The translations under genes and the position numbers were made by a program. Under the pieces are notes generated by a model. That model was not told where the DNA came from. It was given only the letters and a program-made list of their open reading frames with translations, and searched no databases. This document shows positions 23,194 through 57,640 of a DNA stretch of 64,000 bases, piece by piece (position 1 is the first letter of the stretch; each line of letters opens with the position of its first letter). This DNA comes from Escherichia coli. Its GTDB lineage: Bacteria; Pseudomonadota; Gammaproteobacteria; Enterobacterales; Enterobacteriaceae. The stretch is from NCBI RefSeq assembly GCF_029227855.1, contig NZ_CP074358.1; one strand, 5' to 3'.

Positions 23194-24171
23194 TCAGCGG
23201 GATTTGAAGAGTTTTTCCAGGTCATCCAGTGTGATGCCCAGTTTTTCAAGCAGGGCAAGTTTCTCCGCCATCTCCGGACTGACTTTTTCCGCAGGTGAAG
23301 GTGGCAACGGATTTTCCTTACTCTCATCATTCGGCGCTTTTAACCGGGGACGCCGGTAGTGAATACAGAAGAATTTTGTCCGCCCCCGCTGGATCTCCGT
23401 GTAATCAAGATATCCAATCTCGCGCAACTGCTCCATTGCCCGTCTGACCGTCTGGTTCTGGGAAAATACAGGAGACTTCAGATTGAGGCGTGCACGCAGC
23501 CGCGCCAGCGATATCGGTGCCGGATCCCGGGGCAGGCTCTCTATAAAGGTGTAGAGTGCCTGGGCGGACTCCCGTCGCTTCAGGGCATTAATCGCCTTAA
23601 GCTGGAGAAGGACTTTTCTGTCAAACTGGTACAGTTCAAACAGGCGGGGATCAGCCTGTAACTGAACAATATCCCGCTCAGTATCGTAGTAGGCTGACTG
23701 TACCAGATGGGTGATGTATTCCCGGGTGTGCTTCTCATCGGTACGGGAAAACGAGATCACGGTACCGGCAATGCGCTTCAGGGAAGGGCTGATGCGCTCA
23801 CGCAGCCTGCGGGATGACTGGCTTGAAGGTATACCACACAGTTTTGCAAACTCAACAAAAGGCAGTTCAACTTTGTCACCAATCACGTTATGGCGGGCAA
23901 AGGAATGAATGATCCCCACCCAGGTCTTGAAATCGTTATCCATATCCAGGCGGGGGCCGGTGATCTCAACCTTATCGAATCCCTCAGCACGGGCCAGGGA
24001 AAGACGAGTCAGCTCTTCCGTGGCATCAGTACGTGACAGTGTATTTTTTTTACTGTTCTTCAGTGATTTAAGGGTCGGTACAAAAACGCCCAGACGCATC
24101 AGCGCCACAGGTTGTACGGTGTTGTTATTGTTTGGTGTCAGTGTCACCAGCTCACCGGACGACTTATCCAC
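23194..24171 (-). CDS. repA: RepFIB replication initiator RepA
   Basis: 325-aa ORF recognised as the RepFIB initiator, flanked by iterons on both sides. Confidence 0.85.
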
Positions 24172-24492: not shown

Positions 24493-24954
24493 TTATTGAT
24501 CATTCATGGATCTATTTACTGGATCGGGCCTCTGGATATGTGGATAAATCATTCCGGAAAAACAGCATACACTACCGATTATGAAGGCTTCAGGGCGTAC
24601 CTGCTCACTGTGATTACAGATCCATTGCGCTTCCTCGCCGGTTCGCGGGCTTCGCCCGGTCACCGGTCTGCGGCGAGCACCGTTTTTTCTGAAGTCTGTC
24701 TTTACAGGTAATTTTTGACGGAATCTGCCGTACTTCCTGAGCGTACAGTCATATCCGAAATACACTTCATATGTTTGTTTCAACGCCAGAGGCGCATACA
24801 GACTGGCTCCATGAATATCCTGATGACAGGCACTGCTGCGCAGACACCGGTCATGGATGTAACGGAAATACCAGCTGAACCACAGGTCTTCCAGTCGGGG
24901 ACACTGAGTACAGGGCTGGAGCTTGTGGATACGTATCTCTGGATCTTCAAACAC
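24493..24954 (-). CDS. Hypothetical protein with Cys-rich N-terminus (CxxC...CxxxxxCH)
   Basis: 153-aa ORF, third gene of a same-strand cluster; zinc-ribbon-like cysteine spacing. Confidence 0.4.
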   Translation of the reverse strand: MFEDPEIRIHKLQPCTQCPRLEDLWFSWYFRYIHDRCLRSSACHQDIHGASLYAPLALKQTYEVYFGYDCTLRKYGRFRQKLPVKTDFRKNGARRRPVTGRSPRTGEEAQWICNHSEQVRPEAFIIGSVCCFSGMIYPHIQRPDPVNRSMNDQ

Positions 24955-25010: not shown

Positions 25011-25652
25011 CTATAGCGACAGGACGGACAGTGTCACCTTCCAGTCAGTAGCTAAACGATCTAAGGTGTTCCTGGACAAACTGCAGGAGCCAACGTCTGA
25101 AATGATAAATAAGCGAGGGAATATCTGGTGCTGGAAGAGTTGAGATGACTGGCACATTGGTATAAATCTTGCCGTCATTCTGATCAGTTTGTAACATTCT
25201 GTAATGATCACCATTGGCTGGCGATTTTTCTGTTCAGTAATGTAATTAACCTTATCTGATGCGCTGGCCACTATTCCATCAGCTGTACTGATGGCAGGCT
25301 CCCTGTTGAGGTCTGCCGCGAGCTGTCCGCCGGACTCAACGGGCTCTGCCACAATCCGGTTATGATAGCCTGGAAACTGATCAAGGGTCAGGTCGATATA
25401 GTCCCTGGCAGGGGCGGCAATGACGTGGCCGTATCTGCCAGGACCATTATCCCACTGCATACCGACAATACAGGAGTACAGGTTGCTGCCGTCTTCCGTC
25501 AGATAATCAGTCAGCGTCTGGCTGGCCAGCTCGCTGCAACCGGCCGGGAAATCCTTCAGGTGATCATACCCGGCGGTGAGAGAAGCCTCACAGGAAGTCA
25601 GCTCCAGAGCATGTCGGAAGGCCTGCAGGCGGGTCCAGGTGTCCGCATTCAC
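25011..25652 (-). CDS. Hypothetical protein
   Basis: 213-aa ORF with GTG start at 25650-25652 overlapping the stop of the upstream small ORF. Confidence 0.45.
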   Translation of the reverse strand: MNADTWTRLQAFRHALELTSCEASLTAGYDHLKDFPAGCSELASQTLTDYLTEDGSNLYSCIVGMQWDNGPGRYGHVIAAPARDYIDLTLDQFPGYHNRIVAEPVESGGQLAADLNREPAISTADGIVASASDKVNYITEQKNRQPMVIITECYKLIRMTARFIPMCQSSQLFQHQIFPRLFIISDVGSCSLSRNTLDRLATDWKVTLSVLSL

Positions 25653-25789
25653 TTTTTCACCTTCCCGTCATGACGGGCCAGGGACTGAAGTTTACGGACG
25701 TCCTCCCGGGATCCTTTCAGCTCAGCTTTCGTATCCAGCAGCTGCGCCGCCAGCGGTCTTTTTCCCGGGAGCCGACTTTCCTGGCACAT
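25649..25789 (-). CDS. Small hypothetical protein (46 aa), translationally coupled to the 213-aa gene
   Basis: ATG at 25787-25789, stop TGA at 25649-25651 overlapping the next start; below the ORF-track size cut-off. Confidence 0.3.
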   Translation of the reverse strand: MCQESRLPGKRPLAAQLLDTKAELKGSREDVRKLQSLARHDGKVKK

Positions 25790-25802
25790 ATTCTTTTCGC
25801 AG

Positions 25803-25825
25803 TTATCCCCAGAATCTGTGGATAA
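25803..25825. promoter_or_regulatory. Inverted pair of DnaA-box-like sequences (TTATCCCCA ... TGTGGATAA)
   Basis: TGTGGATAA matches the DnaA box consensus; located in the RepFIB region just upstream of the small ORF. Confidence 0.55.
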
Positions 25826-26039
25826 CTGTTGCTCCTCTTTTGAGAGAGAAGGCTTTACTCACCGCCTGAATGCGGCAGATATGTCTGGACGATATATCTG
25901 CATACGCCGGTACTGCTTCGTCAGATTGCACGGCAGGTGAATTGCCGGGCTGGTACCATACCATATTTGCGCCGAACCCGTCCGGGGCGGTGCCGATAAC
26001 AGATGTTAAATGATTGGTCGTTTTTACATCTGTAAAAGC

Positions 26040-26074
26040 AACAGGGCCCCATGATTATATCATGGGGCCCTGTT
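26040..26074. terminator. Long perfect hairpin (ACAGGGCCCCATGA-loop-TCATGGGGCCCTGT)
   Basis: 14-bp perfect inverted repeat with a short AT loop at the transition from the RepFIB block into the AT-rich intergenic region. Confidence 0.5.
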
Positions 26075-26691
26075 ACTCTGATTCTTCGCAATAGATTGCT
26101 CTGAATTAGATGCGCCTTCTCCATATAGACTAACAGTTCTATATTATTTTACCATCTTTAAATGTGTAAGAGTTTTCTGTTTTTTATTGGTGTTTATCTG
26201 TATTTTTTGTTTTAGGAACGTTTTTGTAAGAATTATCTTTTATATTTGAGGTGATATCTTATTGTGGTTGTTGTAATAGTTTAGAGTCGTAATAAATATG
26301 ATTGATCGCCACTTTAAATGAAGTTAATCTACTGGAGATGAAGTAACTTCATTAATGCGTCATAAAAATAAAAATTCCTGTTTTGGGAAATATGAATGTG
26401 TCTGTCCCCTCCTTCGGGAGGGTGTTTTTTATCTGGAAACTGGTTTCTGGTTCTGATTTTTCTTTTTGTATTATAGCGAGTTACGCATATTTACCAATCG
26501 ATGTCTGGCAAACAGAGTATGGCGATGGTGTGATTTGTGTTTATTGGTAAAAAAAACACCCCCGTAGTGGGGGTGTTGAAACTTCAACCTATGTACTCAT
26601 TATCCTTGGATGGATGAGTAGCGTGCGATATTGAATCATATTCAGCAGGAATAATAATATTCGCAAAAAAATGGATGTGCAAGGAAATTTT

Positions 26692-26859
26692 TTATATGCT
26701 TTTGTGTGTGGTGGTTAGGTAATCAAGAAGATAAATGATGAAGTGTGCCAGTTCAGGATCAATGTTTCCATGGGAAAGCCATTTATTAATAATATCAATT
26801 AAGTTCGAAAGCTCAGGGAAGATTTGTTCAATGTTTTCCTCTGTCTCCCGCACAGTCAT
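26692..26859 (-). CDS. Small hypothetical protein (about 55 aa)
   Basis: Internal start MTVRETEEN... within track ORF 26692..26907; lies in an otherwise ORF-poor AT-rich region. Confidence 0.3.
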   Translation of the reverse strand: MTVRETEENIEQIFPELSNLIDIINKWLSHGNIDPELAHFIIYLLDYLTTTHKSI

Positions 26860-27245
26860 ATAGCGACGTCTCCTTGGGGATTGAAAACAAAAACAATAAT
26901 ACAACAAGTATGAAACAGAAGGTAGGTGGCAGGGGCGGAACAGGAAAACGCATGAGGGCGCTTCCTGGGGGAGATGCCTGGTATCTTTAGGGTTCAGTTT
27001 TGAGATCGGGAATTTTTGTACATTAAGTGCATTATTTAATCAATTGAAACGCGTAATGGATTGATTTTATCAGCAACTATCGCGTTTAAGTTGTCGATCA
27101 TATTTGAGTTGTCTCATTAAGGTCGAATCCCCTGAAAGCGGCGTATAACGTAGGAGTTCCCCTCTATAGCAATAGGTAAGGCTGTTCAAAAAAGGCTTAC
27201 CGTACAATAATTCGCTATATCCAGACGGCCCCCCTTGTCATACAA

Positions 27246-27767: not shown

Positions 27768-28058
27768 ATGGGCGTCAAAATCACAGGTTTAGACAAAATG
27801 CAGAAACAGCTAAAAGAGGTTGAGAGAGCAACGGAGGCCTTAAACGGAAGTTATGATGTTCGTTTTGATGCTAACGATCCTAGCAGCATTGAGAACGCAA
27901 TTCAGGAAGCCTACTCCATGGTGGACGAACGCGCTTCTGGTTATGCCACTAATCCTATGGTCAGTCCATTAATCGAACACATGAAAGAAAATCTGCGCCA
28001 ACAGATTCTGGACAGTGCAGAACAACAAAGACAGGAGAGCGGACAGGATGGCGATTGA
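27768..28058 (+). CDS. Small hypothetical protein (96 aa), first gene of a coupled pair
   Basis: GGAGG 6 nt upstream of ATG 27768; stop overlaps the start of the TIR-like gene (ATGGCGATTGA). Confidence 0.6.
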   Translation: MGVKITGLDKMQKQLKEVERATEALNGSYDVRFDANDPSSIENAIQEAYSMVDERASGYATNPMVSPLIEHMKENLRQQILDSAEQQRQESGQDGD

Positions 28059-28947
28059 TATCTTTCAGTCACTTAAAAATTGCGTATTCGACCTTCAGCG
28101 CGCTGACGTTCAGAACTATCAGCAACCTCTTAAGCAATTGGCCCGGCTCTTGAACTCAGAGAATCTGCAGTCAGTTAATGCACATCTGACCCGCAATGTT
28201 GAACTTGATACCTTTCTGGCCAGGAGTGAAGATACTGAATCCAGCATGGCTGGTTCCGCTGTTCTACAGTGGCCTGATGAGCCCGCTGATATTTTGGGCC
28301 TGAAGTTGCTGCTGATCGAGAAAATGGCAGACGATAACAATTTTTCCTTTAATTTCTGTCATACATTTTTCTATGATCGAAACATTATTGAATCCATTCG
28401 AAAATTCACGTCGTCATTAGTTGCCCCGTTCGTGCGCGATTACCAGTTGTATGTGGAAAACCAACACGATCCTGAGCCTGCAGTGTTTCGGCCGGTTTCC
28501 CGAAAAATTTTTATTGTTCATGGCCATGATAATGATGCCCTTCAGTCTGTTGCCCGTTTTATATCCCGGATAGGTCTTGAGGAAATCATTCTTTCAGAAC
28601 GTCCTGACGGCTCCAGGACGATTATCGAGAAATTTGAAGCAGAGTCAGGGGATGTCAGTTTTGCCATCGTGCTGATGACGCCCGACGATAGCGGCAGTGC
28701 TCTGGCATCTGAAAGCACACGTCTCCGCGCACGCCAGAATGTCCTGTATGAGCTCGGATATTTCGCCGGGAAGCTTGGACGCGGGAAAGTACTTGTACTC
28801 AGGAAGGGAGATATCGAAATCCCTTCAGATCTTGCCGGGGTTCTCTATACCGAGCTTGATGAGCATGGTGGATGGAAACGCAAACTGCTGAGTGAGCTTG
28901 CGTATGCCGGTGTTCCTTTTGACAAGGATAAAGCATTAAGCGCCTGA
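28048..28947 (+). CDS. Protein with C-terminal TIR-like domain (CAP12/PycTIR-type, predicted nucleotide-binding TIR-like)
   Basis: C-terminal motifs FIVHGHDNDA ... LYELGYFAGKLG...VLVL recalled as hallmarks of the TIR-like family; N-terminal 150 aa unassigned. Confidence 0.65.
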   Translation: MAIDIFQSLKNCVFDLQRADVQNYQQPLKQLARLLNSENLQSVNAHLTRNVELDTFLARSEDTESSMAGSAVLQWPDEPADILGLKLLLIEKMADDNNFSFNFCHTFFYDRNIIESIRKFTSSLVAPFVRDYQLYVENQHDPEPAVFRPVSRKIFIVHGHDNDALQSVARFISRIGLEEIILSERPDGSRTIIEKFEAESGDVSFAIVLMTPDDSGSALASESTRLRARQNVLYELGYFAGKLGRGKVLVLRKGDIEIPSDLAGVLYTELDEHGGWKRKLLSELAYAGVPFDKDKALSA

Positions 28948-56365: not shown

Positions 56366-56717
56366 GAATCAACAAGGCGTTATGGGTGATTGCCGAACAG
56401 TTCAGAAAGTGGAAGTCATGATAATATAAGTAAAGCCCCGAAAAAATTTTCGGGGCTTTACTTATATTATCATTTTTCGGCATTGCTGTGTCGTCTGATA
56501 TACCTCAATTTCATCAACCGGCTTTCCGGTTGTCTGTAAATATTGTGCCCGCGAAAAATGGTCTGGCAGGAGGCTGCGCAGTTACCGGGTATATATAAGA
56601 TGGGTTCCCGCTTCGCGGGGCTTCGGCCAGTCAGTATTGTCACTCATATGATATTTTTGTGTGTGGCCTTCCATGCCGCTTTTGCGGCATAACCGGTATC
56701 TGACAATGTCTGTAAGA

Positions 56718-57289: not shown

Positions 57290-57640
57290 GGTTGGTGGTT
57301 CTCACCACCAAAAGCACCACACCCCACGCAAAAACAAGTTTTTGCTGATTTTTCTTTATAAATAGAGAGTTATGAAAAATTAGTTTCTCTTACTCTCTTT
57401 ATGATATTTAAAAAAGCGGTGTCGGCGCGGCTACAACAACGCGCCGACACCGCTTTGTAGGGGTGGTGCTGACTATTTTTATAAAAAACATTATTTTATA
57501 TTAGGGGTGCTGCTAGCGGCGCGGTGTGTTTTTTTATAGGATACCGCTAGGGGCGCTGCTAGCGGTGCGTCCCTGTTTGCATTATGAATTTTAGTGTTTC
57601 GAAATTAACTTTATTTTATGTTCAAAAAAGGTAATCTCTA
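57290..57640. other. oriT: F-like origin of transfer (oriT) with nic region and TraM/TraY/IHF binding repeats
   Basis: Minus strand reads TTTGCGTGGGGTGT/GGTGCTTTTGGTGGTGAGAACCACC (F nic context) at about 57305-57340; inverted and direct repeats upstream of traM. Confidence 0.85.

Follow-up and report, generated by a model that had tools for sequence, protein, structure and literature searches.

An unannotated 16-bp palindrome in F-type plasmids: a candidate minus-strand terminator within a relic of a ColE1-type plasmid

A perfect palindrome on the RepFIA side of F-type plasmids

The window analysed here, meaning the whole stretch of 64,000 nucleotides, belongs to an F-type IncFIA/FIB plasmid, and the F plasmid itself (NC_002483.1) matches it at 99.9%. 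Between the RepFIB replication gene repA and the RepFIA side, the window contains a gene for a hypothetical protein, fragments resembling ColE1-type plasmids, a degenerate Xer recombination core, a perfect palindrome, an AT-rich flank and the gene for the small RNA UptR (Table 1). No record that we examined carries an annotated feature over the palindrome.

Table 1. Features at and around the palindrome, in window coordinates
Feature	Position	Strand	Details
RepFIB repA	23194-24171	-	
213-aa 'hypothetical protein' gene	25011-25652	-	Family widespread on Enterobacterales plasmids
ColE1-type ori-proximal fragment	25753..25867	+	DnaA-box hairpin CAGTTATCCCCAGAATCTGTGGATAACTG at 25800-25828
9-bp direct repeat, left copy	25826..25834	+	CTGTTGCTC; straddles 3' base of DnaA-box hairpin
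244-bp segment	25835..26078	.	Kept in F-type plasmids and pLR-24_1, deleted in ~50 relatives; palindrome at its end
Degenerate cer/parB-type Xer core	25989..26016	+	XerC arm GGTGCCGATAA, centre CAGATG, XerD remnant TTAAATGATTG
Proposed minus-strand intrinsic terminator	26023..26076	-	18-bp stem (26038-26076), then tail UUUUACAGAUGUAAA (26037 down to 26023)
Perfect palindrome	26040..26074	.	16-bp arms 26040-26055 and 26059-26074, loop TAT 26056-26058
9-bp direct repeat, right copy	26070..26078	+	CTGTTACTC; first 5 nt form base of palindrome right arm
AT-rich flank	26079..26500	.	GC 0.27-0.35
Promoter-like site	26497..26470	-	TTGGTA-16-TATAAT; 10/12 match; inside AT-rich flank
UptR small RNA gene	26555..26646	-	Rfam match 124.8 bits vs gathering score 100
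Second ColE1-type fragment	26921..26998	+	81-83% to ColE1 1048-1125; 78-nt piece upstream of ori

The two arms of the palindrome, AACAGGGCCCCATGAT on the left and ATCATGGGGCCCTGTT on the right, form a stem that is GC-rich at its base and AT-rich at its tip. An earlier note on this DNA had described a 14-bp perfect stem with arms ACAGGGCCCCATGA and TCATGGGGCCCTGT; both are contained in the 16-bp stem, so the structure had been slightly understated, and a repeat search extends the arms imperfectly to 19 nt at 95% (26037-26077). The hairpin folds at -30.6 kcal/mol as plus-strand RNA, at -35.3 kcal/mol as minus-strand RNA and at -19.5 kcal/mol as DNA, with folding z-scores of -6.8 to -8.9 and not one dinucleotide shuffle folding equally well. 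Perfect inverted repeats of 16 bp whose loops measure at most 10 nt should arise by chance ~1.6e-4 times per 64 kb (64000 x 11 x 4^-16). The palindrome is therefore far beyond chance and non-random. It is not the longest in the window, as two others have longer arms (56418-56473, with 27-bp arms and 56 bp in total; 57413-57456, with 17-bp arms and a 10-nt loop). The GC content steps from ~0.52 to ~0.27 exactly at the hairpin.

The F plasmid and more than 300 F-type plasmids carry the hairpin in identical form. We found it in 346 of 5,426 complete E. coli genomes, at a median of one copy and always in the same F context, in ~316 PLSDB plasmids, and in 35 metagenome contigs with identical flanks throughout; it is absent from phages (50,697 records). 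Repeats of the REP/BIME kind are intergenic and present in many copies per genome, and the single-copy occurrence of the palindrome in E. coli genomes, plasmids, species genomes and metagenomes rules out a dispersed palindromic repeat of this kind. Outside the F context, the core GGGCCCCATGA...TCATGGGGCCC occurs in unrelated organisms only. Two such bacterial sequences, a Gemmatimonadetes MAG (L015, 2096-2118) and an environmental contig (L041, 1660-1682), carry this 11-bp stem core between an A run and a T run; judged by their sequence, these look like independent classical two-way terminators.

The position of the palindrome also needs revision. It had been placed at the boundary between RepFIB and an island, but shared RepFIB homology ends ~1.3 kb further left, at 24587-24789 in most of the ~3,500 IncFIB plasmids, and the F-specific block on the island side starts at ~27650. 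The hairpin instead lies ~290 bp inside a module that starts at ~25750 and continues, in other plasmids, to ccdAB and repE of RepFIA. The sequence to the left of this module varies between lineages, and linkage to the RepFIA side was found in every lineage examined. With most IncFIB plasmids breaking well to the left of the module edge, a recombination breakpoint at the edge of RepFIB was also rejected as an account of the palindrome.

Two neighbouring regions deserve mention in their own right. The F-specific block from ~27650 encodes a TIR-domain protein, a KAP NTPase and pif genes; the product of 28015-28947 (plus strand) contains a CAP12/Pycsar-effector TIR domain (E = 4e-37), followed in F by a P-loop (KAP-type) NTPase and pifC, and the block looks like an anti-phage defence cluster. 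On the other side, the 213-aa protein has no Pfam or NCBIfam match. Members of its family are usually ~268 aa long, and the F copy has an intact N-terminus and is shortened and diverged after about residue 107. Because the gene belongs to a real family and its N-terminus is intact, it must have its own promoter between 25653 and the hairpin.

The ColE1-type relic around the palindrome

By sequence comparison, the surroundings of the hairpin (25753-26998) are a decayed relic of a ColE1-type plasmid, which F-type plasmids carry in linkage with their RepFIA side. From left to right, the relic comprises the DnaA-box hairpin fragment, the Xer core, the palindrome, AT-rich DNA and UptR. Three ColE1-type plasmids, ColE1 among them, align with the leftmost fragment in their ori-proximal region, which lies ~300 bp from the 3' end of rop. 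It includes a homologue of the ColE1/pMB1 DnaA-box hairpin, a structure distinct from the palindrome and 210 bp to its left. Two short fragments are all that is left of the ori, and both rop and mob have been lost. Neither RNAI nor RNAII was detected in the relic, so the replicon is not intact. The order of the two fragments is permuted relative to ColE1, which suggests that a ColE1-type plasmid integrated in the distant past and was later heavily deleted. UptR is located roughly where RNAI would be in the relic. The idea that UptR derives from ColE1 RNAI was discarded: the two have no similarity, and only the 78-nt piece at 26921-26998 is ColE1-like.

The Xer core lies 24 bp to the left of the palindrome. 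We assessed it against the published dif, cer and psi cores (PMC2410131) and against described criteria for Xer sites, in which the XerD arm is normally better conserved than the XerC arm and the centre spans 6-8 bp (bioRxiv 10.1101/2024.04.05.588136). Aligned with five small-plasmid sites, the window has a recognisable XerC arm and a 6-bp centre, CAGATG, identical to the centre in pRHB31-C01_4. The conserved XerD arm with its inner TTATG is missing: the remnant TTAAATGATTG is 5 bp short of TTATGGTAAAT, and the same gap is common to all F-type copies and to the divergent plasmid pLR-24_1. The core is probably dead and, lacking a proper XerD arm, ought not to be classified as a working Xer site. 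About 800 small mobilizable plasmids match the window at 25965-26008, a stretch that includes 25 conserved nt upstream of the core (25965-25988); the match always ends at 26008. The matched sequences are cer/parB-type Xer sites, for example GGTGCTGATAA CGGATG TTATGGTAAAT. The palindrome falls outside this homology, and none of the small plasmids examined has anything equivalent to it. We also considered whether an insertion had split the Xer site and displaced the second half of the XerD arm; this was rejected, as the sole candidate for that half (26381-26391) is within chance expectation.

Could the palindrome itself be a recombination site, as had been suggested? Its arms (AACAGGGCCCCATGAT) are unlike GGTGCG.. 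or TTATG.TAAA., and with a centre of 3 bp it does not resemble a Xer core. A broader version of this idea is that the palindrome acts at the level of DNA, forming a cruciform or a single-strand fold that serves in protein binding, in priming (as an ssi or primosome site) or in recombination, perhaps together with the DnaA-box hairpin. Such a role would suit its stable folding as DNA and its AT-rich tip and flank, its position 210 bp from the DnaA-box hairpin and 24 bp from the Xer-like core, and the fact that deletion endpoints (described below) fall at the bases of both hairpins. We nonetheless consider it quite unlikely: the centre is too short for the 6-8 bp core of a tyrosine recombinase, the 16-bp perfect symmetry exceeds what protein binding needs, the only natural change in the stem, in pLR-24_1, is a true mismatch in DNA, and the palindrome is single-copy and confined to one lineage. 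The literature that we searched maps no ssi signal to the hairpin region of F.

The cer-like site raises a further alternative. A promoter within cer drives synthesis of the small RNA Rcd (PMC4393325), and the palindrome might be the plus-strand terminator of an Rcd-like small RNA transcribed from a Pcer-like promoter in the cer-like site. The geometry is similar, with a hairpin and U run in ColE1 ~55-73 nt after the XerD arm (read from the sequence) and a window hairpin that ends ~75 nt after the central region. The hexamers equivalent to the promoter are poor, however (CCGAAC, GATAAC), and our scan finds no plus-strand promoter there. Small plasmids with real 28-bp-type sites have no such hairpin downstream, and their homology to the window has already ended at 26008. 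Since the plus-strand tail is weak as well, and the change in pLR-24_1 breaks the plus-strand stem, we regard an Rcd-like RNA as very unlikely.

A 244-bp segment missing from related plasmids

Some 50 plasmids without the hairpin match the window only from 26070 rightwards, at ~94%, and in these, of which pRHB25-C20_2 is an example, the DnaA-box hairpin directly adjoins CTGTTGCTCTGATTC. The segment that they lack has a 9-bp direct repeat at its ends, near-perfect in F. The repeat is perfect in pLR-24_1, where the right copy also reads CTGTTGCTC. This plasmid represents a third lineage, ~93% identical over 680 bp; its left flank resembles that of the hairpin-less plasmids, yet it retains the full 244-bp segment. 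ColE1-type homology, moreover, crosses the left junction of the segment and extends to ~25867. Together with the state of pLR-24_1, this homology shows that the segment was deleted in the relatives rather than inserted in F. The loss fits replication slippage between short direct repeats, each of the 9-bp copies straddling the 3' base of a hairpin. Slippage of this kind explains how the hairpin was lost in one lineage, but not what the hairpin does.

The same repeat could be read as a 9-bp target duplication, with the 244-bp segment as a MITE or IS-derived cassette and the palindrome marking the end of a mobile element. The flanking repeat, near-perfect or perfect, and the apparent 'empty site' in the relatives are what an insertion would leave. 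Such a reading is extremely unlikely and in our view already largely refuted: the ColE1-type homology across the left junction makes the filled state the contiguous one, the segment has no terminal inverted repeats, and it is single-copy in every collection searched, with no second copy in 5,426 E. coli genomes, 72,556 plasmids, 50,697 phage records, 100,044 species genomes and the metagenome collection.

The plasmids that lost the segment are otherwise complete, and many are typed as conjugative. Absence from ~50 related plasmids means that the hairpin is dispensable and that any role it has is non-essential. The earlier note had named absence from related plasmids as part of what would speak against its proposals, and to that extent the comparison goes against them. 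A separate deletion, of 77 bp (~26114-26190), is seen in plasmids of the pUM146/pUTI89 type; it affects the AT-rich flank just to the right of the hairpin and removes a weak minus-strand promoter-like site (26170..26143).

A candidate minus-strand terminator

The sequences that follow the stem differ between the two strands. On the minus strand, an 18-bp stem runs immediately into UUUUAC (GC-UUUU), a U run only 4 long, and on the plus strand the stem is followed by UUACUCUGAUUC. A simple terminator rule (5 T in 8) failed on both strands; the stem-loop itself is what an intrinsic terminator calls for, stable and GC-rich, with z ~ -7. We also computed a d'Aubenton-Carafa-type terminator score, which is a heuristic only and was combined here with present-day energy parameters. 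By this score the minus strand of the window reaches +23.8 and the plus strand +8.0, compared with +44.4 for the UptR terminator as a control and values at or below -14.5 for all of 60 random 70-nt windows. The corresponding values in pLR-24_1 are +21.4 for the minus strand and -12.5 for the plus strand. That plasmid also provides the sole natural substitution in the stem, a G-to-A change that keeps the minus-strand RNA fully paired through a G.U wobble but puts an A.C mismatch into the DNA and the plus-strand RNA; the support that variation gives to the minus-strand reading consists of this one substitution. Of the earlier proposal that the palindrome is a bidirectional terminator, the terminator part is thus plausible on the minus strand, and the plus-strand scores lend bidirectionality little weight.

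Neither open reading frames nor known RNAs account for the hairpin. Among the ORFs and Rfam matches examined, no gene or known RNA ends at it. ORFs across or beside it have no Pfam or NCBIfam matches, and an ORF of 47 aa on the plus strand, ending 27 nt short of the hairpin, carries a frameshift in pLR-24_1; a coding sequence was rejected on these grounds. A known RNA family was rejected too, as the hairpin draws only sub-threshold matches to a microRNA precursor family (30.7 bits vs a gathering score of 100), of the sort expected from a generic hairpin. With intrinsic terminators of enterobacterial plasmids, such as that of UptR, it shares a GC-rich stem-loop, U residues on the minus strand, a location in non-coding DNA and a positive score. 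It differs in its stem, which at 16-19 bp is longer than typical terminator stems and than the 7-9 bp of the UptR terminator.

Coupled with the strand asymmetry, these features lead us to propose, with what we judge an even chance of being right, that the hairpin is an intrinsic (Rho-independent) terminator that works mainly on the minus strand. The stem core that recurs independently in L015 and L041, between an A run and a T run, agrees with this reading. Transcripts running leftward out of the AT-rich stretch with UptR would fold into the hairpin and be released at the short U run, GC-UUUU; the tail at 26023-26037 corresponds to a point near 39.47 kb in NC_002483.1. With termination here, they would not run on into the dead cer-like Xer site and the DnaA-box hairpin, nor into the 213-aa gene's promoter region and, beyond it, RepFIB. 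We infer from the sequence that a transcript reaches the hairpin and ends there. If so, leftward termination could keep read-through transcription away from the RepFIB replicon and the neighbouring gene, which would be relevant to vectors and typing schemes. The hairpin was probably inherited together with the ColE1-type relic.

The main alternative, somewhat unlikely in our view, is that the hairpin is an inert leftover with no present role, either the former terminator of a ColE1-type plasmid gene or a by-product of rearrangement, preserved because F-type plasmids are young and nearly identical. The surroundings are clearly decayed, as the 5-bp gap in the XerD arm, the permuted ori fragments and the loss of rop and mob attest. 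ColE1 and p28NP3, moreover, each have a minus-strand gene whose end adjoins the XerD arm, the place where one would look for such a terminator. A whole lineage has lost the hairpin, and conservation is of little informative value because the copies are nearly all identical. Against an inert remnant, the hairpin has stayed almost intact across the ~7% divergence of pLR-24_1, where the minus-strand RNA still pairs despite the sole change, and a promoter-like site directed towards it has been conserved.

This site, 26497..26470 on the minus strand, is the best promoter-like match in a 3-kb scan; it lies ~390 nt upstream of the hairpin and faces it from the right. All lineages conserve it, and its identification is a match to consensus. 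A more specific form of the minus-strand terminator reading, which we hold to be unlikely, is that the hairpin ends an unannotated non-coding RNA of ~400 nt that starts at 26497..26470, just downstream of UptR. UptR has a strong terminator of its own at 26577..26555, 480 bp from the hairpin. Were the ~400-nt RNA real, F would have a second, so far unknown plasmid RNA running through the AT-rich stretch, and in the hairpin-less lineage this transcript would extend into the DnaA-box hairpin and the neighbouring gene's promoter region.

The hairpin is a previously unannotated feature of an ordinary kind in a very well-known plasmid and matters little for biology at large; of more use are two by-products of the analysis, the relic in which it sits and the deletion mediated by repeats. 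For the annotation of F, a very strong stem-loop is now placed in its context and the idea of a RepFIB edge is corrected. The stretch between RepFIB and the RepFIA side holds a decayed ColE1-type remnant with a probably dead multimer-resolution site. In the relatives, the loss of 244 bp is a clean natural case of deletion between 9-bp repeats located at the bases of hairpins.

Two smaller structures lie within the AT-rich stretch. One, at 26407-26422 on the plus strand, is a conserved terminator-like hairpin, CCCTCCTTCGGGAGGG followed by TGTTTTTTAT; the other is a 10-bp inverted repeat at 26317-26353. Both may belong to an undescribed small transcript.
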